Positions 38 to 35,348 are shown, counted from the stretch's first letter. The stretch is DNA of 40,791 bases from Candidatus Moranbacteria bacterium RIFCSPLOWO2_12_FULL_48_12 (GCA_001784735.1 MFSB01000008.1:1-40791); one strand, 5' to 3'. Notes: a model not told the origin generated them from the sequence alone. A program made the numbers and translations.

Positions 38-82
38 CATGATAAGTGATACCCGGCCGAATGTATCGTTCGATACGGGCGG
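38..82. repeat. Upstream hairpin module (14-mer CATGATAAGTGATA plus GC hairpin CCCGGCCG..CGGGCGG); second copy at 35427..35476
   Basis: The exact 14-mer is shared with 35463..35476, and a similar GATACCCG(G/C)CCG hairpin arm is present. Both copies lie tens of nt upstream of a gene start (eno, ftsX). Confidence 0.5.
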
Positions 83-8290: not shown

Positions 8291-8355
8291 TGGTTGACAC
8301 CTGCTGAACAATGATATAAAATAAGTAGGTTAAATAAGTCGATATTTCTATGGAT

Positions 8356-8667
8356 ATGCTCGCGATTATCAGAACTGGCGGAAAGCAGTACAAGGTTTCC
8401 GAGGGGCAAAAAGTGAAGATTGAGAAGCTCGATCAGGCAGTCGGCGACACCGTGCAGTTCGAGACGCTCTTTGTCGGCGATGAGAAGGCTGTCCATATCG
8501 GTGCGCCGGTTTTGGAGAAGGCAGTCGTGGAAGGCAAGGTGCTCGCGCAGGAACGCCATGACAAAGTCAAAGGCATCAAGCACAAGGCCAAGAAGCGCTA
8601 CCTCGTCCGCTATGGCCATCGCCAAGCGTACACGGAAGTGGAGATTACTAAAATCTCAGTAAAATAA
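8356..8667 (+). CDS. rplU: 50S ribosomal protein L21
   Basis: MLAIIRTGGKQYKVSEGQKVKIEKL is a typical L21 N-terminus. An alternative ATG lies at 8350. Confidence 0.95.
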   Translation: MLAIIRTGGKQYKVSEGQKVKIEKLDQAVGDTVQFETLFVGDEKAVHIGAPVLEKAVVEGKVLAQERHDKVKGIKHKAKKRYLVRYGHRQAYTEVEITKISVK

Positions 8668-14905: not shown

Positions 14906-14917
14906 TTTATTTGTGGC

Positions 14918-14954
14918 CTCCTCCACTTTCCAAGGGGAGGGTAGGGAGGGGTTT
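14918..14954. repeat. CCTCC..TTTCCAAGGGGAGGGTNGGGAGGGGTT hairpin repeat, copy 1
   Basis: Near-identical to 17474..17510. Contains the hairpin core CCTCC(A/C)CTT-TCC-AAGGGGAGG. Confidence 0.7.
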
Positions 14955-15024
14955 GAAATTTACTTTAGTATATCAAGCAAAAGTATAATTGACAAAACCC
15001 TGTGGGGAGGACTATGCTCTCAGT

Positions 15025-17473: not shown

Positions 17474-17510
17474 CCTCCTCCCCTTTCCAAGGGGAGGGTG
17501 GGGAGGGGTT
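17474..17510. repeat. CCTCC..TTTCCAAGGGGAGGGTGGGGAGGGGTT hairpin repeat, copy 2
   Basis: Near-identical to 14918..14954. Lies between hrcA and the grpE fusion ORF. Confidence 0.7.
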
Positions 17511-17518
17511 AAAAAAAT

Positions 17519-18472
17519 ATGACACCAAAGAAGAATCACGAATCACGAATCACGAATCTCGGAAAACATGAACAATTCGAGATAAGCCAGAAAGTCATCT
17601 TGTACAATCCGCAAGACAAGAAATTTCTTATTACAAAAGATGAGAGACCTTCAGAAGCTTCTGAAAAATATGGTGTGTGGGAAGTACCAGGTGGTCGGAT
17701 GAATGAAGGAGAAAAAACAGAGCAAGCTATCGCTCGTGAAATCAAGGAAGAATTGGGAGAAGATGTCCAATACGAAATCATCAATGCTAATCTGGGACAC
17801 ACTATACACTATTTTACCGAGCAACCGAGTCGAGCCGTCCTTTTTGTACTAGCAAAATACAAGGGTGGAGAGATCGCATTGAGCGAAGAAAATAGCGAAT
17901 TTTACTGGAATACCATTGAGGAAGTCGAGAGCAGCAAAGAGTATTTTCCATGGTTGAAAGGGGTCATTAGGAACGCAGCGAATTATCTAAGAAATGAAGA
18001 ATTATTGAATGATCTGAAGCGATGCCAAGCGGACTTCGAGAATTATAAGAAGCGCCAGGCGGAAACGCAGAAAATGCTCGGGGGATATCTCATAGAAAAA
18101 CTGGTGCTGGATATCGTCCCGGTGTTGGATAATTTCCGCTCCGCGACGCTCCACGTCCCGCCCGAAGAGAAAGACAGTCCGTGGGTCATTGGCATCCAGT
18201 ATATCGAGAAACAACTAGAGACGGTATTGACTGACAATGGCATTCAGACGATAGAAGTAAAAGAGGGCGAAGAGTTTGATCCGAAGATACATGAGGCCGT
18301 GAGCAATGCAGAACCAACAACCAACAACCTACAACCTACAACAGAAGAAGATGCTTCGGAGGCGGGCAGTCAGTCGTCAGTCGTCAGTCGTCAGTCGATA
18401 GTCAAGGTGATCCAGAAAGGCTATAAGTTCGGTAATCGAGTGATACGACCGGCGAAAGTGACAGTAAAGTAA
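17519..18472 (+). CDS. grpE: Nudix hydrolase domain fused to nucleotide exchange factor GrpE
   Basis: One uninterrupted 317-aa ORF. A complete Nudix box GRMNEGEKTEQAIAREIKEELGE (Gx5Ex7REUxEExG) lies in the N-terminal half. The C-terminal half carries GrpE blocks ADFENYKKR, VLDNF, HEAV and IQKGYKFGNRVIRPAKVTV. Confidence 0.85.
   Translation: MTPKKNHESRITNLGKHEQFEISQKVILYNPQDKKFLITKDERPSEASEKYGVWEVPGGRMNEGEKTEQAIAREIKEELGEDVQYEIINANLGHTIHYFTEQPSRAVLFVLAKYKGGEIALSEENSEFYWNTIEEVESSKEYFPWLKGVIRNAANYLRNEELLNDLKRCQADFENYKKRQAETQKMLGGYLIEKLVLDIVPVLDNFRSATLHVPPEEKDSPWVIGIQYIEKQLETVLTDNGIQTIEVKEGEEFDPKIHEAVSNAEPTTNNLQPTTEEDASEAGSQSSVVSRQSIVKVIQKGYKFGNRVIRPAKVTVK
18311..18403. repeat. Heptamer-periodic low-complexity element lying in frame inside the grpE coding sequence
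   Basis: (ACAACCT)n ... (CAGTCGT)n spans 93 nt, or 31 codons. It resembles the reverse complement of the intergenic element at 3776..3860. It encodes EPTTNNLQPTTEEDASEAGSQSSVVSRQS between the conserved HEAV and IVKVIQKGY blocks. Confidence 0.6.
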
Positions 18473-18479
18473 CCTTTAC

Positions 18480-18614
18480 TGTCATCCCGGGCTTGACCCG
18501 GGATTCAGGTTGTCACCCTGAGCGAAGTCGAAGGGTCTCAGAACAATAAGACAAGATTCCTGCGCCACCGCTAAAGCTTTAGCGACACGCGGTCGACAGG
18601 CTCGGAATGACAAG
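18480..18614. repeat. Composite TGTCAT..GGAATGACA-family element
   Basis: TGTCATCCCGGGCTTGACCCGGGATTCAGG, TTGTCACCCTGAGCGAAGTCGAAGGGTCTCAG, the 16-nt palindrome CGCTAAAGCTTTAGCG (18569..18584), and CAGGCTCGGAATGACAAG. Confidence 0.6.
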
Positions 18615-18808: not shown

Positions 18809-20767
18809 ATGGCAAAGATACTCGGCATAGACTTGGGGACAACCAACTCCGCGATGGCGTTCGTGGAAGGCGGGACTCCCAACATCATCGAGAACAAGGA
18901 AGGCAATCGTACCACACCGTCGATGGTGGCGATATCGAAAACCGGCGAGCGTCTGGTGGGCTTACTCGCCAAGCGCCAGGGTGTTACCAATCCAGAGAAT
19001 ACACTGTTTTCCGTGAAGCGCCTCATCGGGCGGCATTTCAACGACGAGGAAGTCCAGCGCGACAAGAAAACGCTTCCCTACAAGATTCTTCAGGCCGGCG
19101 AAGGCGTGAAGATCGTGATGGGTGGCAAGGAATACACGCCGCAGGAAGCTTCTGCGATGATTCTCGGCAAACTGAAGGCCGACGCAGAAGAGAAGCTGGG
19201 TGAGAAGATCACCGACGCGGTCATTACCGTACCGGCCTATTTCGACGACTCCCAGCGCAAGGCCACCAAAGAAGCGGGTGAAATCGCCGGATTCAACGTG
19301 CGTCGCATCATCAACGAACCGACGGCCGCCGCTCTGGCCTACGGTTTCAACAAGAAGAAAGATGAGAAAATTGCAGTTTATGATCTGGGTGGCGGAACGT
19401 TCGATATTTCCATCTTGGAAGTAGCCGAAGACACGGTCGAAGTGAAGTCGACCAACGGGGATACGCACTTGGGCGGTGATGACTTCGACCAGCGGATCAT
19501 CCACTGGATACTCGATGAATTCAAGAAACAGGAAGGGATCGATTTGAGCAAAGATCCACTGGCGCTCCAACGCATCAAGGAATCTGCCGAGAAAGCCAAG
19601 ATCGAACTCTCGACTGCCAACGAAACGGAAATCAATCAGCCATTCATCACCGCGGATGCCAACGGGCCGAAGCACTTGCTTATCAAGATGTCGCGGGCCA
19701 AGTTGGAAGAGCTGGTAGGCGATCTGGTCGAGGCGACATTTGGCCCAGTGAAAAAAGCCCTGGCCGATGCGAAACTGGATGTGAAAGATATCCATGAGAT
19801 CGTCTTGGTCGGCGGGATGACTCGTATGCCGCTGGTTCTTTCCAGCGTAGAAAAATTCTTCGGCAAGAAAGCCAATATTACCGTCAATCCGGATGAGGTG
19901 GTGGCGCTTGGTGCCGCTATCCAGGGCGGGGTACTGGAAGGTTCTGTGAAAGATGTGCTTCTCTTGGACGTGACGCCGCTCACATTCGGTATCGAGACTT
20001 TGGGAGGCGTGCGGACGCCGCTTATCGATCGCAATACGACGGTACCTGTATCTCGCTCTCAGGTATTTTCCACTGCCGCTGATAATCAACCATCGGTGCA
20101 GATCCACGTACTCCAGGGTGAGCGTGAGATGGCCTCTGACAATAAATCTCTTGGTCAATTCATCTTAGACGGCATTCCACCATCGCCGCGCGGTATCCCG
20201 CAGGTGGAGGTGACGTTTGACATCGATGCTTCGGGAATTCTTTCTGTGACGGCCAAAGATAAGGCGACGAATAAATCCCAATCTATCCGTATCGAATCAT
20301 CCACCGGACTTTCCAAAGATGAGATCGAGCGGATGAAGAAGGATGCCGAGATGCACGCCGATGAGGACAAGCGCAAGAAAGAACTCATCGAAGCGCGCAA
20401 TATGGCCGACAGCCTTTCCTACACGACCGAGAAGTCGATGAAAGATGCCGGTGACAAGTTGACCGCTGATGAGAAGAAGCCGGTGGAGGAAGCCATCACT
20501 GAGCTCAACAAAGTGAAGAACGGCGATGACTTGGAAGCTATCAAGAAGGCCACCGAGAATCTCTCCACCGCCGCACAAAAGATTGGTGAGAAACTCTATA
20601 AAGCGGCTCAAGAAGCCGAGAAGACCAAAGCAGGCGAAACTAAGCCAGCCGATGGCAATACTGGTACTGCCGAAGCCCCGAAAGAGGCCGAAACAGAGCC
20701 TGCTTCGGCTTCAGACGAGCCGGCTAAACCTGAAGGTGATAAACCAGCAGACGAGCCGAAAAAGTAA
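18809..20767 (+). CDS. dnaK: Molecular chaperone DnaK (Hsp70)
   Basis: [22 protein letters not shown].., [22 protein letters not shown]. 652 aa. Confidence 0.98.
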
Positions 20768-20778
20768 GGAGTATATTA

Positions 20779-20808
20779 AGAGCGGAGGTTTTCCTCCGCT
20801 CTTATTTG
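20779..20808 (+). terminator. Rho-independent terminator after dnaK
   Basis: AGAGCGGAGG-TTTT-CCTCCGCTCT (10-bp stem) followed by TATTTG. Confidence 0.85.
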
Positions 20809-20819
20809 AAAATAATTAT

Positions 20820-21386
20820 ATGAAAATGATTCCTTCCGTCACAAATCGTGAACTTGATGAAACTTTTATTTATCAGGGACTATCATGGCAACCAAGAATT
20901 ACATCAAGGGGAGATCTGGGTATCACTGGACCATTTTGCAAGAGATGTAACGTAAGTTTAGCAGGTGGTGTGGTTAAATGTTGGAACTGTAATGCCGATT
21001 ACTCAAAAATTTTAGATAGCGACTTAGTGGAACTTCGAAGTAAAGCTCATAAGATATATGAAGCGAATGCTCGTTCAAAATACCCAGTTATAAACTTTGA
21101 CATCCCACCAACATCACTTAGTCATAGTACAACTGAGGACGAGAATTTTTTTGTGGGATATAAATTTGGGCAAGAAAAGGGTAGAAAACAATTACACATT
21201 TGGGTTGGTGAGAGGAAAAAAGATCAAAGTAATAAGGATAAAGTTCAATTAGTTATTGATGTTGATAAAGAAGAGTTCAGACATGACCAAACTAATAAAT
21301 TTCCTGGTGAAATAATTGCTAACGCCAAGATTGTTTTCAAAAAATCCAGTACAGATATAAACTATGAAAAAATAGTTGAAGGATGA
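20820..21386 (+). CDS. Hypothetical zinc-ribbon protein (188 aa), AT-rich
   Basis: ATG 20820 lies after the dnaK terminator. The longer track ORF from 20526 overlaps dnaK in another frame. Motif CKRC-x11-CWNC. Visibly more AT-rich than the flanking genes. Confidence 0.6.
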   Translation: MKMIPSVTNRELDETFIYQGLSWQPRITSRGDLGITGPFCKRCNVSLAGGVVKCWNCNADYSKILDSDLVELRSKAHKIYEANARSKYPVINFDIPPTSLSHSTTEDENFFVGYKFGQEKGRKQLHIWVGERKKDQSNKDKVQLVIDVDKEEFRHDQTNKFPGEIIANAKIVFKKSSTDINYEKIVEG

Positions 21387-21398
21387 AATATTTTATCT

Positions 21399-21437
21399 AA
21401 AAATGAAGCGGCCCTGGCAGAATGTTTCCCGCCAGGG
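21399..21437. repeat. 39-nt hairpin repeat AAAAATG(A/C)AGCGG(C/T)CCTGGCAGAATGTTTCCCGCCAGGG, copy 1
   Basis: Second copy at 22994..23032. Hairpin CC(C/T)TGGC..GCCAGGG. Lies between convergent ORFs, so it is terminator-like. Confidence 0.7.
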
Positions 21438-21497
21438 CTTTGTTCATTTGTAGACCTCCTATAGAAAAAACGCGGTTAAATTTGCTTGTGGTCGGCG

Positions 21498-21905
21498 CTA
21501 CGGTTTTTCTTGCACCTCGAATACTTCGAGGTTGAAGTGGACCGGGCCGATCCAGAGGTCGTGTTCTTCTGACCCTTGCGAAGCCGTAGCCTGAATGATG
21601 GCCGTTTGTTCCTTGCCGACGAACTCATCGTCGACTTTGACACCAGCGATGTGCGGTTTGATCACTACCGCTTTTCCGACGATCGTGAACTCCACGCCGC
21701 TGCCTTGGCACAGATCTCGGATGTAGTTGACCGGGATACCGGTGCCGCGCATGTTGTTTGATCCGAAACTCATACTCTCGTAATAGTAGGTGCGCTGGTA
21801 TAGATGCCGCGTGCCTACTACACGAGCTGAAAGTATCATGCAGATATTGCTGTTTACAACCTGCCGCGCTATTTTTGCTGCATCTTCTGCCGTTTTAATA
21901 GCCAT
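21498..21905 (-). CDS. Hypothetical protein (135 aa)
   Basis: ORF 21498..21962. The likely start is ATG 21905 (MAIKTAEDAAK..). No motif recognised. Confidence 0.55.
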   Translation of the reverse strand: MAIKTAEDAAKIARQVVNSNICMILSARVVGTRHLYQRTYYYESMSFGSNNMRGTGIPVNYIRDLCQGSGVEFTIVGKAVVIKPHIAGVKVDDEFVGKEQTAIIQATASQGSEEHDLWIGPVHFNLEVFEVQEKP

Positions 21906-22232
21906 TTTTCCCTCTATTGTTAAGGTGGTTGTTGCGTATCGGAATAAAATGTAACACTTCATTGCAACAAACCATTATACTCTTATTCATCGGTTTTGTC
22001 AATGTGAATGATGTAATAATGCTTTGAATAAAGCATTATTGATGATATGTTAAAATACTTAAGTATTCGCATGAAAGCGGTGATTGTTTTTAGTATCTAA
22101 ATCTATGAAAGTCGTGTTGATGCATGGGAAGGATACGGATTCGAGCCGGAAAAGAAAATGGGTCAGGTACATTTTTTATAAAAAAATGATTAGAAAGCCA
22201 GAAAAGGGGGCAGGTACAATTACTTAAATACT

Positions 22233-22301
22233 ATGGTTTGGACGGACGAGCAGATAGCAAATCATAGGGAAGTGGTGGATGTTCTGGAGGGGATAGAGTG
22301 A
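22233..22301 (+). pseudogene. Fragment A: duplicated 5' end of the M24 peptidase gene (22 codons then stop)
   Basis: MVWTDEQIANHREVVDVLEGIE* compared with MVWTDEQIKNHKEVVDVLEGIV.. of the intact gene at 26530. About 55 of 66 nt are identical by hand alignment. Confidence 0.75.
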
Positions 22302-22326
22302 TCAGTATTTTTATACAATAAAAGTT

Positions 22327-22851
22327 ATGTTGACACCAGAACAAGAAGAGTGGCTGGCGCATCTTTCGGACACCGGAACAGTCAAGATCGTACCATTTGA
22401 CCCGACCACGGAGGAGAAATTTGAAAGAGTGAAAAAGAAAATCCAGGGTCATTTTGGAGCGGATGTTGCTGTCGAGCATTATGGCGCCTCGAGTCTCGGC
22501 ATATCAGGTCAAGACGAAATTGATGTGTACGTGCCAGTTCCAGAGGCGAAATTCAATGAAACTGTCGAAGCGCTTCGGAAACTTTTTGGTGAGCCCAGAA
22601 GCACTTATCCTCTGAAAAGAGTCAGGTTCGTGGCGGAAGAACAAGGCAAGCATGTCGATATTTTTGTCATCAACAAAGAACATGAGAGCTGGAGTAAGCT
22701 TGTCCAATTCCAGCATATTCTAAAAACAAATCCTGAAGTATTGGAATCCTACCGAAAATTGAAGGAAGAAGGGGATGGATTGAATATTCGAGAATACTAT
22801 AGACGAAAACTAATTTTCATCAACCGAGCAATACATAAAAAGAGTCGTTAA
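22327..22851 (+). CDS. GrpB-like nucleotidyltransferase-fold protein
   Basis: HYGASSLGISGQDEIDVYV matches the GrpB pattern H.GSTS.PG...KP.IDI.V. The C-terminal FQHILKTNPEVLESYRKLK matches FRD.L...P.....Y..LK. Confidence 0.75.
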   Translation: MLTPEQEEWLAHLSDTGTVKIVPFDPTTEEKFERVKKKIQGHFGADVAVEHYGASSLGISGQDEIDVYVPVPEAKFNETVEALRKLFGEPRSTYPLKRVRFVAEEQGKHVDIFVINKEHESWSKLVQFQHILKTNPEVLESYRKLKEEGDGLNIREYYRRKLIFINRAIHKKSR

Positions 22852-22871
22852 AAATTTTACGATTGCAAAAT

Positions 22872-22955
22872 ATGCTTTGGACGGATGAACAGATAAAGAA
22901 TCATAAGGAGATGGCGGATGTTTTGGAGGGGATTGTCCGAGAATTTTTTTGTTAA
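22872..22955 (+). pseudogene. Fragment B: duplicated 5' end of the M24 peptidase gene (27 codons then stop), truncated at a REP hairpin
   Basis: MLWTDEQIKNHKEMADVLEGIVREFFC*. About 60 of the first 66 nt are identical to 26530... The stop is immediately followed by REP copy 1. Confidence 0.8.
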
Positions 22956-22976
22956 TTTGGAAGCCTTGCTTCCAAA
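22956..22976. repeat. REP hairpin copy 1 (TTTGGAAGC-CTT-GCTTCCAAA)
   Basis: 9-bp perfect stem with a 3-nt loop. Confidence 0.9.
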
Positions 22977-22993
22977 ATCTTCTAAATGGTTAA

Positions 22994-23032
22994 AAAAATG
23001 CAGCGGTCCTGGCAGAATGTTTCCCGCCAGGG
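22994..23032. repeat. 39-nt hairpin repeat, copy 2 (see 21399..21437)
   Basis: AAAAATGCAGCGGTCCTGGCAGAATGTTTCCCGCCAGGG. Lies downstream of the minus-strand ORF 23118..23780. Confidence 0.7.
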
Positions 23033-23117
23033 CCTGTTTCTCCTCCTTTTGTCGTTGATTGATACTATCCGAGAAAATCGTATTTCTTATAGGAAGGTCA
23101 AGTCCTCAGACACCCGA

Positions 23118-23780
23118 TCAGAGCAGCGCTGTGATGGTAGCGTCTGAAATGCACTTTTCCCATGCTTTCCGGCATGAGGGAAGCACAGTTTTCGGGATAA
23201 TGAAACGCCTGAGTCTTTTTTGCACTTCATCGGATGGCACGGAACGATTCCTGGCCAGCCACTTCGCTACCCGTTTGGGGATGGTGATCCGGGTAGTTTC
23301 GAAGTCTGGCCAGCATGGGATGCTGGTCGTCTCCTTCACGGTAACCAGAATAACGGACCACCGAGAATGCCAGATTTTTGGCGTGCCTTCCAAGTTGTAG
23401 AGAAAGCTATCCCGCTCCAAGAAAAGCTCGATTTGCCTATCGCTATCCACAAGGACTGTCCGGCTCTCCACCGTGTGTGGCGGCGTAATGCTGTCGACTT
23501 CCCGTACCATGTCACGGTAGCGCAAAGGCATCACTTTTTTGGTATATGTGAGAGAGGGCACGACGGTAAGCAAGTGCCTGAAAACATCCAGGTAGTAGAA
23601 TGCTACGGCCTTTGCGGTCGCCTCCCCGAAGTCATACTGGTTAGTTCTGGCTTCACTTCTGCGGCTATTTTTCACGGTTCGATCTCCTGTAAAAGGACGA
23701 AGCAGATCCGGGTGAACCGGCATCTGGTTACTTCGATGAAGTAACGGCTCATTATAGGTCGAGAGAGTAATAAATGTCAA
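23118..23780 (-). CDS. Hypothetical protein (about 200-220 aa)
   Basis: Longest ORF in a segment where both strands are open. The track start is TTG 23780 and the first ATG is at 23723 (MPVHPDLL..). No family recognised. Confidence 0.5.
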   Translation of the reverse strand: MTFITLSTYNEPLLHRSNQMPVHPDLLRPFTGDRTVKNSRRSEARTNQYDFGEATAKAVAFYYLDVFRHLLTVVPSLTYTKKVMPLRYRDMVREVDSITPPHTVESRTVLVDSDRQIELFLERDSFLYNLEGTPKIWHSRWSVILVTVKETTSIPCWPDFETTRITIPKRVAKWLARNRSVPSDEVQKRLRRFIIPKTVLPSCRKAWEKCISDATITALL

Positions 23781-23800
23781 CCATGAATCTGGTGATGTAA

Positions 23801-23821
23801 TTTGGAAGCCTTGCTTCTAAA
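23801..23821. repeat. REP hairpin copy 2 (one mismatch: ..GCTTCTAAA)
   Basis: TTTGGAAGCCTTGCTTCTAAA. Confidence 0.85.
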
Positions 23822-23915
23822 TTTACTTCAAGCAGGGAATTAGCCGCTCTTTGCATATCCTCTGGCATATTCTATACTTGGGGCAGGAGCTTTAAGCATT
23901 AATTTATAAAAGTCT

Positions 23916-24863
23916 ATGGGATTTTTTCAAACCGTAAAAAAGAGCGTCTATGATGTCGCTTTCTACGCCACCGCCAAGACGGAGAGTTTCTCGGTAGCGC
24001 TCAAGCAGTACACTTTGTTTATCTTGTGCGTGGCGGTCGTCATCTCGATTCCTCTGTATATAGCTTTCGGAGTGTGGCATTCTCAGGTCAAAGAAATGGG
24101 CGATATCCGCGCCAAGGTGTTGGCCGTGTATCCGGATGAGCTTGTGCTTACTTTCCAAAATGGTCAGATGGCTTCCAATGTCGAGGAGCCATACAGCATC
24201 CCGATGCCAGCGGAATTTGATGTGAAAACTCCGAAGAATCTCGTCGTTATCAATACCCGCGGATCCATCACGCTCAATGATTTCGAGCGTTACGATACCC
24301 TCGCCATCCTCGGAGGCGATGCTGTCTGGACGCACGACCCGCAAAAAGACAAAATCGAAATTCAGAAATTCGATCAATTTAGCAAAGCCTCTTTTGTCTT
24401 GAATGAGCAGAAACTCACGGAATGGGTAGATCTCGCCTTCAAAGTCGGAAGAATTGTTGTCATTATCCTGCTTATTTTCATGCCGGCGTTTATCTTCGTC
24501 TTTCTCTGGGTCGGGTATCTTGTCTATCTCCTCTTCGGAGCGTTTGTCATCTGGCTTATGGCGAAACTGCGCAAAGTTGACTGTACTTACGGCCAGTCTT
24601 ACAAGCTCGGTCTCTATCTCCTCACCCTCCCGATTCTCTATAGCGTTCTGACCACCGGTCCGCTTTCGATGTTCCATATCCCCTTCGGCTTCACCCTCAT
24701 ACTTGCCGTCCTCGCCTACGCCAATCTCGGCCCAATAAAAACAGTCAAAACAACTTCTGTTTCTCCTGCACCAAACAATATGCCCGTTTCAGCCAAAGGC
24801 TCTGAGTCAGTCGAAGGGATAAAAGTTGGAGATAGTGAATCCAATAAAGATGGGAAGTTGTAA
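23916..24863 (+). CDS. Multi-pass membrane protein, DUF1189-like
   Basis: N-terminal MGFFQTVKKSVYDVAFY and several hydrophobic helices. The family assignment is from memory of the DUF1189 N-terminal pattern and is unverified. Confidence 0.6.
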   Translation: MGFFQTVKKSVYDVAFYATAKTESFSVALKQYTLFILCVAVVISIPLYIAFGVWHSQVKEMGDIRAKVLAVYPDELVLTFQNGQMASNVEEPYSIPMPAEFDVKTPKNLVVINTRGSITLNDFERYDTLAILGGDAVWTHDPQKDKIEIQKFDQFSKASFVLNEQKLTEWVDLAFKVGRIVVIILLIFMPAFIFVFLWVGYLVYLLFGAFVIWLMAKLRKVDCTYGQSYKLGLYLLTLPILYSVLTTGPLSMFHIPFGFTLILAVLAYANLGPIKTVKTTSVSPAPNNMPVSAKGSESVEGIKVGDSESNKDGKL

Positions 24864-24894
24864 AAAATCATACTGACTGGGGTAAATAAGAGAA

Positions 24895-24915
24895 TTTGGA
24901 AGCAAGGCTTCCAAA
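24895..24915. repeat. REP hairpin copy 3 (TTTGGAAGC-AAG-GCTTCCAAA)
   Basis: Perfect copy, opposite loop orientation to copies 1, 2 and 4. Confidence 0.9.
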
Positions 24916-24951
24916 CTTTTAGATAGCAGAATGGCGTAAAGAAAGAAATAT

Positions 24952-25633
24952 ATGCCTATAAATCCAAATTATAATCTTGATAAAATAAAGTTTTCACTCG
25001 ATGAGGGAACATGGCAACGCGCCACTATACTTTATTACCAAACGAAGTGAGCGAAACGAAAGTTTACTTTCGTTTCCGAGCGCAGTGCCGGTAAAATCGG
25101 GTTGAATACCCCGCGGCTTGCCGCGGATATGAAACGAGCTTAAGCTCGTTTCAGGGTCCAGGGCTTGCCCTGGGGTAAATACCTGTTATGAGAAACACAA
25201 GGTAACAAAGTTTGAATCAGATTCGTATGGATTTTCAGCGGTTGTGTTTGGCAGCCGTGTGTATAAAGTACGTGTGTCGACGCGTCGTTTTGACGAAGGA
25301 GATTGTGAATGTTATCTCGGACAAAATGATGAATTATGCAAGCATATGGTAGCAGTCGCTATTTATGCTATACTTGGCGGAAGACCGCTATTGGAGGAAG
25401 AAAAGCAACAAAAAAATGATATATCTTTAACATGGTTCATTTATCAGAATTCACTAAGTGAGGACTGTAGTCGTCTTGCCGCTACTGTTTCCGAGCTTCC
25501 GGTAAGTTTGCAAACAGCCGAGCTTTTGGTTGATCTTCTCTTAAGGATGGATAAAAAACTTTGTACAGGCGGCGTTGATGATTCAGATGGAGTTGTTGGC
25601 GGTTGTATGGAGGAAATCGTGGGGGTTACTTGA
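24952..25633 (+). pseudogene. SWIM zinc-finger protein gene interrupted by a hairpin array
   Basis: A 32-codon N-terminal piece (24952..25050, ..EGTWQRATILYYQTK*) is followed by about 125-145 nt of hairpins. The rest lies in another frame (open from about 25133; track ORF 25244..25633) and carries the SWIM motif CECYLGQNDELCKH. Confidence 0.6.
25053..25173. repeat. Array of four consecutive hairpins
   Basis: GAAACGAAAGT-TT-ACTTTCGTTTC (25053..25076); CCGCGG-CTTG-CCGCGG (25111..25126); the palindrome GAAACGAGCTTAAGCTCGTTTC (25131..25152); CCAGGG-CTTG-CCCTGG (25158..25173). Confidence 0.85.
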
Positions 25634-25751
25634 AGAGTTTTCCAAAGCTGATTCGAGGTGTATTGTTGTATTTTGTAAGCTTTTTGAAATAGAAACCTGT
25701 TTTGGATGGGAAAAACCGCTTGTTGCAATTGCCAAGCGTGCAAGAACATGA

Positions 25752-25772
25752 TTTGGAAGCCTTGCTTCCAAA
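25752..25772. repeat. REP hairpin copy 4 (CTT loop)
   Basis: TTTGGAAGCCTTGCTTCCAAA, 37 nt upstream of the transposase ORF. Confidence 0.9.
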
Positions 25773-25808
25773 TGGTAGAATAGTAGAGAAGTATTAAGTA
25801 TAAAAATC

Positions 25809-26483
25809 GTGTCAATAAGAAAAATTAATTTCGCAAGTGGCGAATTTTATCATATTTACAATAGGGGAACCGACAAGCGGAACATCTTTTCCGATTTGGC
25901 AGATCAAGAGCGCTTTATTCAGAGTATGAAAGAATTCAATGCGCTCAATCCGATTGGCAGTATTTATGAACATTGCCGTTCTCAATTTGGAAGCAAGGCT
26001 TCCAAAAATGGTAAAAAGGACAAAAGGCTTGTAAATATAGTGGCTTATTGCCTGAATCCAAATCACTACCATTTTATATTGGAACAGGTTTCAGAAAAAG
26101 GCATAGAGAAATTTATGCAAAGGCTTGGTACGGGATATAGCAAATACTTCAATAACAAACACGAGAGATCTGGTGGACTATTTGAGGGAAAATTTCAAGC
26201 AGTACATATCGACTCAAACGAATATCTTCTGCATGCGAGTGTTTATGTCAATCTCAACGACCGTGTTCATGGATTTGGAAGCAAGGCTTCCAAATCTTTA
26301 GGGAAGATGTTGATTAAGAGCAGATCCAGTTGGGATGAGTATATGGGAAATGCTAAAGAAGGGTTTTGTACAAAAGACAATATTCTTGGTCAATTTAAAA
26401 ATGTTAAAGAATACAAAACTTACGCGGGAAATGTGCTGGTAGGTATACATGAAAGAAAATTTTTAGCACAAGAGAAATTTTAA
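25809..26483 (+). CDS. IS200/IS605-type Y1 (HUH) transposase, REP-associated tyrosine transposase (RAYT)-like
   Basis: FYHIYNRGTDKRNIF, HUH motif NPNHYHFIL, LFEGKF, and Tyr motif ASVYVNLN. Flanked by REP hairpins and containing two more. Confidence 0.82.
   Translation: MSIRKINFASGEFYHIYNRGTDKRNIFSDLADQERFIQSMKEFNALNPIGSIYEHCRSQFGSKASKNGKKDKRLVNIVAYCLNPNHYHFILEQVSEKGIEKFMQRLGTGYSKYFNNKHERSGGLFEGKFQAVHIDSNEYLLHASVYVNLNDRVHGFGSKASKSLGKMLIKSRSSWDEYMGNAKEGFCTKDNILGQFKNVKEYKTYAGNVLVGIHERKFLAQEKF
25986..26006. repeat. REP hairpin copy 5, in frame inside the transposase ORF (encodes FGSKASK)
   Basis: Starts exactly at codon 60 of ORF 25809..26483. Confidence 0.9.
26274..26294. repeat. REP hairpin copy 6, in frame inside the transposase ORF (encodes FGSKASK)
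   Basis: Starts exactly at codon 156, the same phase as copy 5. Confidence 0.9.
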
Positions 26484-26488
26484 AGTTA

Positions 26489-26509
26489 TTTGGAAGCAAG
26501 GCTTCCAAA
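26489..26509. repeat. REP hairpin copy 7
   Basis: Lies 5 nt after the transposase stop and 20 nt before ATG 26530 of the peptidase gene. Confidence 0.9.
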
Positions 26510-26529
26510 ATCTATTTCAATTGAAATAT

Positions 26530-27270
26530 ATGGTGTGGACGGATGAGCAGATAAAGAATCACAAGGAGGTGGTGGATGTTTTGGAGGGGATTGTCCAGGA
26601 GGTCTTTTTGTTTATATCAAAAGAGAAAATTGTCACGGAAAGAAGTATCCAGAAGTTTATTCTGAGGAAGTATTCAGAGTATGACCTCAAATCTTGTATG
26701 GGTTTGCCGATAGTGGCGTTTAATGAACACTCGGCACAGCCGCACTATGCCATTGGCAAGAAATCAAAAGTTTTGAAGCCAAATACTTTGATTCTCATCG
26801 ATATTTGGGCGCGGTTTAAGAAAAGGAACTACCCGTACGCGGATATTACCTGGATGGCCTATTATGGAAAATCATTGCCTATCAAAATACAGCGGGCATT
26901 CGATACGGTATTGAAGTCGAGGGATGCCGCCCTCAGATTTATTAAAAGTCATGCGAAGAAGGGAAAGTTACCGAAAGGACAGGCAGTCAATGAAAAAGCC
27001 AATGCTATAATATATAAAGCGGGATATGGGAAGCATATTCTCCATTCGATTGGCCATTCTATCGGATTTCGCTCGCCCCATGGTGCCGACAAGAATCTTA
27101 ATAAGAAAGGCGACGAGCCTTTGAAACTCAGTCTCGGTTACACAATCGAACCCGGCATTTACATTGCCAATGAATTCGGCATCCGCAGCGAGATCGACTT
27201 TTATGTCGATGAAACAATGAAACTGCACATCACCACCGGCCTCCAAAAGAAAATGGTTTTTATAAGGTAA
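26530..27270 (+). CDS. M24-family metallopeptidase (Xaa-Pro/methionine aminopeptidase-like pita-bread domain only)
   Basis: LILIDIWA, YADITWM, HSIGHSIG and GYTIEPGIY..GIRSEIDF match the M24 metal-ligand blocks. The start is taken at ATG 26530 (MVWTDEQ). Confidence 0.82.
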   Translation: MVWTDEQIKNHKEVVDVLEGIVQEVFLFISKEKIVTERSIQKFILRKYSEYDLKSCMGLPIVAFNEHSAQPHYAIGKKSKVLKPNTLILIDIWARFKKRNYPYADITWMAYYGKSLPIKIQRAFDTVLKSRDAALRFIKSHAKKGKLPKGQAVNEKANAIIYKAGYGKHILHSIGHSIGFRSPHGADKNLNKKGDEPLKLSLGYTIEPGIYIANEFGIRSEIDFYVDETMKLHITTGLQKKMVFIR

Positions 27271-27285
27271 TTAAGAATTTTATCT

Positions 27286-27786
27286 ATGCCAAAAAGAATC
27301 ATTGAAGATTTTACGGGGGCGAAGAAAGAAATGGATTGCATCGGATGCGCCATTACAGAAGCTGGGAAGGATCAGCCCGGATATATCATCGAGACCAGGC
27401 TGTTTCATGCGCATCAGGATTATGAAATTCCGATTATTGGATTTGTTGTGCTTTCTACGAAGAGACATATCATAAGTTTTGATGAATTTACGGATGAAGA
27501 GGCGGCGGAATTTATTGGATTGGTACGGGAGATTCGCAGGGCGCAACGCCAAGTGCTTGGCATTGAGACGGTATATTTTATTCAGGAGGAAAATAATATC
27601 GGCAGTCACTTTCATCTGTGGTTTCTCCCGCGCTATGAATGGATGAATGACGAGGCCAAGTTTGGAAAGAAACTAAACTCCGCTCGGCCGGTGCTTCAAT
27701 TTTCCAAGACGCATATGAAAACTCCGAAGAATATCGCCGCAGTAAAAGAGGCCGCCGAAAAATTGAGAGTATACTTGAATAAATAG
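27286..27786 (+). CDS. HIT-family-like protein
   Basis: N-terminal CIGCAI and a histidine-triad region SHFHLWFLPR, in which the third His is replaced by Trp. Confidence 0.7.
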   Translation: MPKRIIEDFTGAKKEMDCIGCAITEAGKDQPGYIIETRLFHAHQDYEIPIIGFVVLSTKRHIISFDEFTDEEAAEFIGLVREIRRAQRQVLGIETVYFIQEENNIGSHFHLWFLPRYEWMNDEAKFGKKLNSARPVLQFSKTHMKTPKNIAAVKEAAEKLRVYLNK

Positions 27787-35233: not shown

Positions 35234-35267
35234 GTAACATAGAACTCATTTAACATTAACCCTGTTC

Positions 35268-35348
35268 TGTCATTCCGGGCTTGACCCGGAATCCAGTAGA
35301 TGAGCCATAAGCATTAAGCTGGATTCCCGCCTGCGCGGGAATGACAAG
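35268..35348. repeat. MITE-like element with GTCATTCC..GGAATCCAG inverted termini
   Basis: TGTCATTCCGGGCTTGACCCGGAATCCAG (35268..35296) and, inverted, CTGGATTCCCGCCTGCGCGGGAATGACAAG (35319..35348). Confidence 0.65.

Follow-up and report, generated by a model that had tools for sequence, protein, structure and literature searches.

Relic starts of an M24 peptidase gene in a groundwater Moranbacteria genome: candidate scars of two insertions of foreign DNA

The 5' end of an M24 peptidase gene, 60-85 bases in length, recurs twice upstream of the intact copy in a Moranbacteria genome from groundwater, within an analysed stretch of 40,791 nucleotides (40.8 kb; the window). We lean towards reading the two upstream copies, A and B, as non-functional scars left when foreign DNA entered the interval between dnaK and the peptidase gene on two separate occasions, each time with a replacement gene start. 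Incoming DNA would have consisted of cargo and about 60-105 bp of the peptidase 5' end of a related donor; integration would fall within this donor-derived stretch, the donor-derived start would become the working start of the peptidase gene, and the resident start would persist as a truncated remnant beyond the cargo. The first cassette carries a GrpB gene, and the second is an IS200-like module, consisting of a REP hairpin, cargo, a RAYT-like Y1 transposase and another REP hairpin, which has gathered REP-delimited genes. The copies and the first cassette are placed as follows:

22233..22301, plus strand: copy A, a relic of the peptidase 5' end (ATG at 22233, 22 codons, TGA at 22299-22301)
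22327..22851, plus strand: GrpB-family gene, nucleotidyltransferase fold (PF04229, 6.4e-18)
22850..22955, plus strand: copy B, a relic of the peptidase 5' end (ATG at 22872, 27 codons, TAA at 22953-22955)
26510..27270, plus strand: intact M24 peptidase gene, copy C (ATG at 26530; PF00557, Peptidase_M24, 3.4e-29)

Copies A and B are real, far above chance. Aligned without gaps, the first 66 nt agree at 54/66 positions between A and C, 60/66 between B and C (an earlier note on this DNA had put these at about 55 and 60), and 52/66 between A and B; elsewhere in the window, on both strands, the best match to the 66-mer is 33-34/66. BLAST aligns B with C over 96 nt at 85.4% identity (E=6e-24), A with C over 69 nt at 85.5% (E=1e-14), and A with B over 63 nt at 82.5%, and the three copies form the largest direct-repeat family across the 40.8 kb. 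Both relics end in the early stops seen before, with the translations MVWTDEQIANHREVVDVLEGIE (A) and MLWTDEQIKNHKEMADVLEGIVREFFC (B). The 20-nt leader of the intact gene is also found in copy B, and an end-point test extends the B-C similarity from -22 to about +83, with modest support for the part from +68 to +83 (p=0.015). This similarity sets in directly past the GrpB stop codon in B and directly past the hairpin REP7 in C, and stops 0-12 nt short of the hairpin REP1, so that at both copies the boundaries of the repeat are the boundaries of the cargo; the TAA of copy B abuts REP1 (22956-22976), in line with the earlier observation that this copy is cut at a REP hairpin. The A-C similarity covers the stretch from around the ATG up to +62..66; the longer extent implied earlier is not statistically significant (p=0.24). 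An identical block of 17-23 nt is common to all three copies, and a promoter-like site (9/12) lies near copy A, at 22191-22220.

Mis-assembly of the repeats, a concern of the earlier note, is excluded. The full dnaK-to-peptidase arrangement is also found in three independent assemblies (L001, L005 and L007), and in runs X1 and X2, used as assembled contigs and unitigs, a single 4,419-nt unitig spans 21000-25060 with zero mismatches and a further unitig spans 25160-27314, at even depth. The assembled contigs of this population showed neither a circular form nor an excision product nor a polymorphic empty site.

The predicted empty site, with dnaK running straight into the peptidase gene, exists in related Moranbacteria. 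Synteny is kept in relatives both on the left (dnaB-cysS-corA-hrcA-grpE-dnaK) and on the right (a gene for a 166-aa protein, Cu-oxidase_4, DSBA, RF-1, FtsX), and in L023-L025 dnaK and its terminator are followed directly by the peptidase gene, which indicates that the 5.7 kb in between is an inserted islet. L011 and L012 have near-empty versions of the interval, and the relics are absent from the empty-site relatives L023 and L011/L012. L022 and L110 carry other inserts in the same position, and the region can indeed be regarded as an insertion hot spot. Positions 20745-20803 of the window align at 84-92% with L011 9926-9984, L023 367-409 and L110 413-470, in each case just 5' of the peptidase gene or of the first inserted gene; since in relatives the terminator stands immediately 5' of the peptidase ATG, it marks the left edge of the islet.

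20768..20803, plus strand: dnaK terminator hairpin, left edge of the islet
20820..21962: outermost inserted block, consisting of the next three features
20820-21386, plus strand: 188-aa ORF
21399-21445: hairpin T1
21498-21962, minus strand: 154-aa ORF, preceded by a 12/12 consensus promoter

Among the loci compared, the outermost block is found only in this strain: its ORFs have no Pfam or NCBIfam match, and BLASTN and TBLASTX against relatives gave no match except the T1 hairpin. The only duplicated items in 20804-26509, besides the gene start, are the REPs and the 47-nt T hairpin. GrpB homologues outside this strain are at most 64% identical; the one in L104 likewise lies 3' of dnaK. The GrpB cassette encodes no transposase.

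Gene content between the copies agrees with the earlier description: GrpB, then an orphan minus-strand ORF, a DUF1189 membrane protein, a split SWIM gene and Y1_Tnp. The second interval is not a single cassette but a Y1-transposase module, bounded by REPs, to which genes have accreted:

22956..22976: REP1, left terminal hairpin, TTTGGAAGC-CTT-GCTTCCAAA
22994..23780, minus strand: hairpin T2 and orphan 201-220-aa gene, kept in the module of L013 and L110
23801-23821: REP2, left of the DUF1189 unit
23916-24863, plus strand: DUF1189 membrane protein gene (3e-19)
24895-24915: REP3, right of the DUF1189 unit
24954..25633, plus strand: SWIM zinc-finger gene, split (PF04434, 9e-5)
25752..26509, plus strand: module core (REP4, RAYT-like Y1 transposase gene, REP5-REP7)
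25752-25772: REP4, doubling as the -35 box of a TGGTAGAAT promoter
25809-26483, plus strand: RAYT-like Y1 transposase gene (PF01797, Y1_Tnp, 1e-6)
25986-26006 and 26274-26294: REP5 and REP6, in frame inside the transposase gene
26489-26509: REP7, right terminal hairpin of the module

All seven REP-pattern matches of the 40.8 kb fall within 22956-26509, with 0.02 expected by chance, and there are none outside the module at the compared loci; metagenome contigs with other flanks join at REPs, which implies that further copies exist somewhere. T2 (22994-23040) is a copy of T1, 95% identical over 40 nt. The orphan minus-strand gene has a 12/12 promoter (23780-23751), is 74% and 79% identical at the nucleotide level to its counterparts in L013 and L110, and has no family match in the Pfam/NCBIfam scan. 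Cargo of the module differs in the relatives L013, L110 and L113: the REP-delimited DUF1189 unit (23801..24915) is missing in all three, and in L023 a DUF1189 gene lies directly 3' of the peptidase gene. The SWIM gene is whole (256 aa) in L113 and is broken here by a MITE-like multicopy insert of ~150 nt (about 25035-25186), the depth of which is 6-10x local.

The putative transposase displays the HUH motif NHYHF and scores 29.4 bits with PF01797 (cut-off 23) and 30.1 bits with NF047646, REP_Tyr_transpos (cut-off 80); some database sources call its homologues 'RayT'. The layout of the module core is also seen in L013, L110, L111, L113, L112 and L115, and in L013, L110, L113, L112 and L115 the gene is flanked by its cognate REPs, as by REP4 and REP7 here. 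The REP sequence varies in step with lineage across loci, and homologues of such REP-flanked Y1 elements in Patescibacteria number about 3,700, a large family in which the transposase gene contains its own REP twice in frame. In REP/REPIN-RAYT and IS200/IS605 systems a Y1 (HUH) gene is likewise flanked by palindromes, and the REP/REPIN-RAYT palindrome is also present elsewhere (Bertels and Rainey 2011, PMC3116915; Bertels et al. 2017, PMC5581495). The module shares hairpins and a Y1 gene with IS200/IS605, but its transposase falls under the curated RAYT cut-off (30 vs 80 bits), two palindromes lie in frame in the transposase gene, and REP-delimited cargo has accreted on one side. Insertion of IS200/IS605 elements makes no target duplication; the module, in contrast, carries cargo and is flanked by duplicated gene ends of 53-105 nt in the window and L013, in L113 and in L112.

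The same architecture recurs independently. In L113, a relic of the CutA1 5' end (90.6% over 53 nt) is followed by 10 nt, REP-SWIM-REP-RAYT-REP and intact CutA1, with 130 nt between the right REP and the duplicated segment. In L112, the 3' end of prfA is followed by REP-RAYT-REP, 4 nt and then the final 69 nt of prfA once more. L041 has a 19-codon relic, a DUF6922 and AbiEii toxin-antitoxin pair, and then an intact distant homologue of the peptidase, with neither a REP nor a transposase in the cassette. Relic architecture is found at other genes also in L043, where the relic lies between two full tandem paralogues, and in L021. In all, the Y1 module is flanked by a duplicated neighbour-gene end in three of five independent contexts (window/L013, L113, L112); L110 and L115 have the module without a duplicated gene end, so such duplication is not obligatory for it. 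The peptidase gene can therefore not be the specific target, given the same arrangement at CutA1, prfA and an unrelated gene. The earlier idea of repeated insertion regenerating the gene start thus holds for the architecture, with the old start left behind, and fails for peptidase specificity.

This architecture is reminiscent of dusA islands, which insert in the 5' end of a protein-coding gene and supply a new functional 5' end, so that the original end becomes a relic at the outer boundary and the flanks are imperfect direct repeats; dusA is always targeted, by a tyrosine integrase encoded beside the target, at a semi-conserved att site of 21 bp (Farrugia et al. 2015, PMC4482086). Here, too, the two relics stand on the upstream side of the cargo and the intact peptidase gene on its downstream side, as would follow if an old end had stayed outside and a new one had been fused to the gene body. 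Unlike dusA islands, the locus has repeats of 60-105 bp, related elements sit at different genes, and no integrase was found: the scan of 36 window ORFs (Pfam, 28; NCBIfam, 7 (one ORF with a shorter start)) detected no tyrosine or serine recombinase among the ORFs tested, whether inside the cassettes or in the rest of the 40.8 kb, and the neighbour of the intact peptidase gene is the Y1 transposase (PF01797). Islands at the ends of tRNA and tmRNA genes (CIMEs, tycheposon-type arrays) also accrete serially in units, each delimited by part of the target, which there is the 3' end of an RNA gene; some units are cargo only, and mobility relies on an integrase provided in cis or in trans. Stepwise accretion at a single site, partial gene-end copies and cargo-only units are common to those arrays and the peptidase locus, which differs in having neither an RNA-gene 3' target nor an integrase among the ORFs tested. 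An integron cassette array was rejected, as no integrase was found among the ORFs tested and the repeats, instead of resembling attC sites, are part of the coding region of the adjacent gene.

An unlikely explanation is that of site-specific integrative elements, either of the dusA or tRNA-island type or lacking an integrase and mobilised in trans (CIME- or satellite-like), in which a recombinase encoded elsewhere would read an att core in the gene end, and attP would carry the replacement end. The architecture identical to dusA islands (PMC4482086), tandem accretion like that of arrays at tRNA genes, and the best-conserved block of A, B and C (GGATGTTYTGGAGGGGAT, +46..+62), which falls close to where the repeats end on the right, would all fit, and an element-borne gene end would also account for the synonymous divergence described below. 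On the other hand, besides the lack of a recombinase among the ORFs tested in the 40.8 kb, close relatives of the same element target the peptidase 5' end, the CutA1 5' end and the prfA 3' end, which indicates that no single gene serves as a dedicated att site; L041 lacks a comparable core near the right end; and third-position conservation rises only mildly in the 5' end of the peptidase gene (0.72 vs 0.59). A shared att core and a single target gene, as in the dusA islands, are therefore not what these loci display.

Divergence between relics and intact copies bears on the source of the gene starts. Synonymous to nonsynonymous codon changes are 6:3 for A and C, 2:3 for B and C, 6:1 in L041 and 9:2 in L112; the pooled synonymous share is 23 of the 32 codon differences in these four short repeats, where random substitution would give 20-28%, and the excess holds at P=0.002 even with 45% allowed. 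Such mostly synonymous differences suggest that relic and intact copies diverged inside working genes, i.e., are different alleles, although later replacement of the intact gene by a diverged allele could also have produced the excess. Nucleotides 18-240 of the peptidase gene are 92-98% identical to L026 and the remainder 77-85%, which points to a recombination tract across the 5' part of the gene and counts in favour of a foreign start.

If instead the insertions themselves, above all that of the REP/Y1 element, had copied 60-105 bp of target on both sides, by staggered breaks or by template-switching of a replication fork with switch-back, and one copy had then decayed, the relics would be long target-site duplications made in situ. 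We regard this as improbable. It correctly predicts that the duplicated gene is always a local neighbour (peptidase, CutA1, prfA), and is consistent with similar sizes (53-105 nt) and with relics within 0-12 nt of the element ends in the window, L013, L113 and L112. The 23/32 synonymous changes, and the 9:2 ratio in L112 with the reading frame and stop codon preserved, are unlike neutral decay of one copy; moreover, the right-hand copy in L113 is 130 nt from the right REP, and the GrpB and toxin-antitoxin cassettes have no transposase. We know of no Y1 or HUH transposase that makes target duplications.

Local duplication followed by decay, in which a REP-mediated or illegitimate tandem duplication of the peptidase start, or of entire peptidase genes, is succeeded by deletion and unrelated insertions and the relics are dead paralogues, is very unlikely in our assessment. 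In enterobacteria, tandem duplications are known to be joined at REPs; copy B ends at REP1, the REP1 and REP7 regions, flanks included, agree at 79% over 42 nt, and the L043 relic lies between tandem paralogues. However, a joint between +83 and REP1 predicts a second whole REP1-REP7 interval, and none is present. At least four independent truncations would be needed, all within codons 19-28; the synonymous bias and the CutA1 and prfA cases are left unexplained; and L110 presents a module without a relic and L041 a relic without a REP. The REP-mediated duplication that the earlier note rated as equally plausible is thus disfavoured, because the second copy of the interval is absent and because relic and intact copies differ mainly at synonymous sites, where neutral decay of the relics is predicted.

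As for how foreign DNA with its own gene start may have entered, the simplest route would be homologous recombination by a single crossover ('Campbell' or ends-in) with a circular or permuted molecule. Campbell-type insertion-duplication is a laboratory technique in which circular DNA with an internal or terminal gene fragment yields direct repeats flanking the insert, one copy being truncated at the end of the fragment and the other beginning at its start; this is exactly the product seen at the peptidase locus. We know of no description of it as a natural route for gene cassettes or Y1/REP elements. For the Y1 module, a circle could form if excision paired a true element end with a false one lying in the adjacent gene. 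We infer the circular intermediate, the homologous recombination and the exact chemistry of integration, and likewise the order of events. Against this preferred route, 60-105 bp is short for a RecA-dependent crossover, L113 has the gap of 130 nt, L110 and L115 have the module without duplication, and the initial molecule joining cargo to a gene end is unaccounted for in the case of GrpB and the toxin-antitoxin pair, both transposase-less. A partial parallel is found in the rhs/cdiA orphan toxin/immunity arrays, where an incoming module recombines via a short stretch of conserved gene at the 3' end of a polymorphic toxin gene, swapping the gene's own variable domain, and the displaced resident end persists as a truncated 'orphan', with repeats that permit later recombination (Koskiniemi et al. 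2014, PMC3967940). In contrast to those arrays, unrelated genes are inserted at the peptidase locus and the peptidase protein itself is unchanged.

A more speculative proposal, to which we give limited credence, is that the REP-flanked Y1 family spreads between related genomes by taking along a piece of 60-100 bp of a neighbouring gene and using that piece as its point of entry into a naive genome. Re-entry may proceed by homology or by a Y1-dependent reaction, displacing the resident gene end, after which REP-delimited cargo may be collected. If true, this would be a route not described for HUH elements; the integrase-less cassettes (GrpB, toxin-antitoxin) would follow it too, and 'bring your own gene end' would then be a general mode of gene gain in the reduced genomes of Patescibacteria.

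Once in place, the relics would serve as direct repeats for later gain or loss of cassettes. The peptidase tree is star-like, and therefore does not order such gains and losses. The single relic of L013 is A-like in its left part (25/28, including three adjacent derived positions in common with copy A) and B/C-like in its right part (23/24), a mosaic of the kind expected from recombination between repeats, which suggests that GrpB either was inserted into an existing relic or was deleted by recombination between A and B.

The start of the M24 peptidase gene occurs three times in the window, once at the intact gene and twice in truncated upstream relics, here called copy A and copy B. The stretch between dnaK and the intact gene reads, from left to right:

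20768-20803, terminator directly after dnaK, homologous to the dnaK terminator of related loci
strain-unique block: a 188-aa ORF, hairpin T1 (21399-21445) and a 154-aa ORF on the minus strand
22233-22301, copy A, relic of the peptidase start: ATG at 22233, 22 codons, TGA at 22299-22301
cassette 1, the GrpB gene
22872-22955, copy B, relic of the peptidase start: ATG at 22872, 27 codons, TAA at 22953-22955
cassette 2, REP-bounded module, first half: REP1, hairpin T2 (22994-23040, a copy of T1) with an orphan minus-strand gene, REP2, DUF1189 gene (23916-24863), REP3
cassette 2, second half: SWIM gene split by a MITE-like insert (about 25035-25186), REP4, Y1 transposase gene (25809-26483), REP7
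26530, ATG of the intact M24 peptidase gene (Peptidase_M24, 3.4e-29)

Over the first 66 nt, 54 positions of copy A and 60 of copy B are identical to the intact start, and 52 are identical between the two relics. The best other match of the intact-start 66-mer, on either strand of the 40.8 kb, is 33-34/66, which rules out chance similarity as the source of the relics. In BLAST comparisons, copy B aligns with the intact start over 96 nt (E=6e-24) and copy A over 69 nt (E=1e-14); the three copies are the largest direct-repeat family of the window. Copy B and the intact gene are similar from 22 nt before the ATG, a point directly after the GrpB stop codon in the former and directly after the last REP hairpin in the latter, to somewhere in +68..+83, at REP1 or just short of it; the similarity of copy A to the intact gene spans approximately from the ATG to +62..66. 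A continuation of the homology of copy A to the GrpB ATG was considered, and is not significant (p=0.24). Family searches of the ORFs confirmed the gene content that the earlier note had placed between the copies. For annotators the relics are a warning: such short ORFs mimicking the start of the next gene are scars of pseudogene type and no leader peptides.

Mis-assembly or a collapsed repeat, which the earlier note had singled out for checking, can be excluded. Independent assemblies of several metagenomes have contigs with the full dnaK-to-peptidase arrangement (L001, L005, L007). In Logan unitigs of two metagenome runs, X1 and X2, a 4,419-nt contig spans 21000-25060 with zero mismatches, taking in copy A, GrpB, copy B, REP1, the orphan gene and DUF1189; a second contig spans 25160-27314, and depth is even. 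The sole break in coverage of these runs is the multicopy insert of about 150 nt within the SWIM gene. A joint in another run (X5, 22975>25749), considered as a deletion variant, is a 22-nt REP-to-REP artefact of short contigs. The sequence is contained in runs from groundwater and soil metagenomes. Among peptidase homologues, the closest show 77-85% identity and carry the source labels Candidatus Moranbacteria or simply 'bacterium'; close relatives were few when genome and metagenome contigs were searched with the peptidase, namely L014, at the same place as L011, and L026.

Gene order is kept among relatives both to the left (dnaB-cysS-corA-hrcA-grpE-dnaK) and to the right of the peptidase gene (166-aa gene, Cu-oxidase_4, DSBA, RF-1, FtsX). 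The empty site envisaged by the earlier note, dnaK followed directly by the peptidase gene, exists: in three related loci (L023-L025) the peptidase ATG lies 20 nt after the dnaK terminator. Elsewhere the two genes are separated by an 82-aa ORF only (L011, L012), by a 430-aa ORF (L022), or by two ORFs and a Y1 module (L110). Since terminator and peptidase gene adjoin in relatives, 20804-26509 (5.7 kb) represents inserted DNA at a variable site.

Is the scar peculiar to the peptidase gene? Short diverged direct repeats were sought in about 0.95 Mb of fetched loci, and the contexts of Y1 homologues were also inspected. Five independent cases were found in distant Patescibacteria-like genomes, with either the 5' or the 3' end of a gene repeated. 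In L041 (3718-4725), where the peptidase is only 46% identical to that of the window, the order is a relic of that gene's start (19 codons), a DUF6922 and AbiEii toxin-antitoxin pair, and the intact gene. L043 (13734-16350) has a 5' relic, two inserted genes and the intact paralogue of an unrelated gene, and L021 (8335-9637) has one inserted gene between repeated 3' ends. L113 (9055-10903) is without the peptidase gene; there CutA1 follows the Y1 module, and on the other side, 10 nt before the left REP, is a truncated copy of the CutA1 start (90.6% over 53 nt). In L112 (9889-10787), from a Minisyncoccia genome whose Y1 protein is 58% identical, the REP-Y1-REP unit begins 5 nt past the prfA stop codon, and the last 69 nt of prfA, stop codon included, are repeated 4 nt past the right REP. 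The Y1 module carries the scar in three of five independent contexts, each time as the end of whichever gene adjoins; in L110 and L115 the module is present with no duplicated gene end. Because the same architecture occurs at CutA1, prfA and an unrelated gene, the scar is not peptidase-specific. The insertion hot spot at the peptidase start proposed in the earlier note stands, and the phenomenon extends beyond this one gene.

We also considered the peptidase 5' end as a possible att site, but its nucleotide conservation is only mildly raised (third-position identity 0.72 versus 0.59, with other gene segments reaching up to 0.69). A REP-like half-site at +50..+70 of the gene (TTTGGA-N8-TCCAGG) was set aside as post hoc: it codes for conserved residues, and L041 is without a REP.

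If a relic derives from the resident gene at the time of insertion, it should decay neutrally, and for these codons about a quarter of random substitutions (0.20-0.28) are expected to be synonymous. When relic and intact copy are compared codon by codon, synonymous and nonsynonymous differences stand at 6:3 for copy A, 2:3 for copy B, 6:1 in L041 and 9:2 in L112. Pooled, this gives 23 of 32, a small codon sample, with P=3e-7 at an expected share of 0.28 and P=0.002 at 0.45, the latter allowing for purifying selection on the intact copy. The relic in L112 keeps its frame, its stop codon and 20/22 residues. Given this synonymous excess, the copies resemble a pair of alleles, both functional during their divergence, and one of them probably came from a related genome. 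The same bias counts against the two ways of producing the repeats in place, namely a long target duplication in situ and a local duplication followed by decay, and weakens both; the latter has also against it that the interval is without a second copy. The REP-flanked Y1 transposase family is not known to make target duplications. The excess may, instead, reflect later allelic replacement of the intact gene.

Exchange is apparent in the peptidase gene itself. Nucleotides 18-240 (26547-26770) are 92-98% identical to L026 (556-780), compared with 77-85% for the rest of the gene, and the first 17 nt and the upstream neighbour of L026 both differ from those of the window. This stretch is best read as a recent recombination tract over the 5' part, in line with a foreign-allele origin. 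A related locus with a single relic, L013, gives further evidence. The left part of its relic is closest to copy A (25/28), with which it has three adjacent derived positions in common (ATAG[C/T]AAAT versus ATAAAGAAT in intact genes); its right part is B- or C-like (23/24, C being the intact start), with copy A matching at only 18/24. GrpB may have entered an existing relic via a crossover near +46..+62, or it may have been lost in L013 by recombination between copies A and B; as either history requires it, the repeats recombine. A peptidase tree meant to order the gains and losses of the Y1 module was star-like, with bootstrap values of at most 44 at the relevant nodes. The peptidase gene of L023-L025 has a DUF1189 gene as its immediate downstream neighbour (L023 1229-2143), and in the window DUF1189 stands between relic B and the intact gene, so that the order of peptidase start, then DUF1189, is preserved; copy B could be the start of an older resident gene copy.

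The serial insertion with regeneration of the gene start suggested in the earlier note is largely right in kind, and its mechanism can be refined. Incoming DNA would carry a short gene-end stretch, beginning where the donor cargo ends and stopping at the end of the mobilised piece, and integration would occur inside that stretch by a single-crossover (Campbell or ends-in) event. Such an event should leave a left copy that is cut short on its 3' side and a right copy preceded by a foreign leader, as observed. HUH Y1 transposases excise single-stranded circles; for the Y1 module the substrate would be a circular molecule formed from a true end and from a false one in the neighbouring gene. A site-specific recombinase acting in trans is a weaker explanation, as the ORFs searched gave no integrase match and the target gene changes among relatives.

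The dusA islands have the same architecture as this locus: the island brings a new 5' end, and the old one stays behind at the boundary (PMC4482086). The locus also resembles the tandem islands found at tRNA genes and the orphan modules that follow rhs/cdiA genes (PMC3967940). Unlike these systems, it gave no integrase among the ORFs searched, has longer repeats and lacks a dedicated target, and one of its cassettes has a REP-flanked Y1 transposase as its mobile core.

The transposase exceeds the Pfam cut-off for Y1_Tnp and falls far short of the NCBIfam cut-off for RAYT. All seven window copies of its REP palindrome, TTTGGAAGC-NNN-GCTTCCAAA, fall within 22956-26509 (0.02 expected by chance), and REP hairpins set apart every gene of the module. 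Relatives have the same core and varying cargo: L112 has REP, Y1, REP only; L113 has REP, intact SWIM, REP, Y1, REP; L013 has relic, REP, T hairpin, orphan gene, REP, REP, Y1, REP, peptidase; and L110 has the layout of L013 but without the relic. The minimal unit therefore looks IS200-type, with the extra genes as accreted REP-delimited units.

Two full REP palindromes (25986-26006 and 26274-26294) lie in frame inside the Y1 ORF, each encoding FGSKASK. The pair is also found in L013 (2687/2990), L110 (3405/3693), L113 (10181/10475) and L115. Of the roughly 3,700 Patescibacteria homologues, 120 were aligned, and these have the motif [FL]G[SGN]xxSK at both positions. The two copies co-vary within each protein (for example LGSEASK twice, [PL]GNPTSK twice, FGGETSK twice), and the REP stems of L013 have compensatory C-G to T-A swaps. 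From these observations, the Y1 gene carries its own presumed recognition hairpins; we found no published description of in-frame REPs within such a transposase gene. The REP upstream of the gene provides the -35 box (TTGGAA) of an extended -10 promoter (TGGTAGAAT or TGGTACAAT; 25752-25781), a pairing conserved in all relatives (L013 ~2484-2515, L110 3146-3175, L113 9921-9955, L112 9962-9990, L115 ~1545-1575), which suggests that the transposase could repress its own promoter via REP binding. On REP-associated transposases of Patescibacteria, full-text searches brought up one passing annotation and nothing more.

Little is understood about gene gain in the small, streamlined genomes of Patescibacteria (CPR), which have few classical integrases and plasmids. 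The scar recurs in recognisable form, as an allele-like copy of a gene end, cut short, next to inserted genes, and it can be sought systematically. If this route is general, gene gains in these bacteria could be dated and counted by it; homology-guided integration, probably after natural DNA uptake, would be a main route of gain, and a very large, unstudied family of REP-associated Y1 transposases would be tied to cargo capture.

Several other elements are embedded in the insert and its surroundings. The two copies of the G+C-rich T hairpin (CCCTGGCAG...CCGCCAGGG), 95% identical over 40 nt, each lie between convergent genes and are conserved far above the surrounding relics; a further copy is in L013 (1642-1687). 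The hairpin probably serves as a terminator in both directions or represents a second family of small repeats. The adjoining minus-strand orphan genes were compared as possible paralogues, as a segmental duplication of hairpin plus gene would make them, and BLASTP found none. Both have perfect 12/12 consensus sigma-70 promoters (TTGACA-17/18-TATAAT, at 23780-23751 and 22002-21974), a match unusual for this sequence, which suggests strong autonomous expression. The GrpB gene was considered as mobile in itself; no close copy was found in another context, the nearest being 64% identical. The hairpin-rich insert of the SWIM gene has 6-10x local depth in four metagenomes and is therefore a multicopy MITE-like element; the SWIM gene is unbroken (256 aa) in L113, where a reversed copy of the insert lies beside the dnaK terminator (8333-8457). 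An Rfam search of 20500-27500, this insert included, gave no credible RNA family. Two further families of palindromic intergenic repeats have two window copies each, at 86-90% identity: CCTCCTCC..GGGGAGGG..GGGAGGGG (14917-14958 and 17474-17515) and GTCATCCCGGGCTTGACCCGGGAT (18473-18508 and 35261-35296). The GrpE gene of the window (17519-18472, 317 aa) has a NUDIX hydrolase domain fused at its N-terminus, and that of L011 is plain (214 aa).
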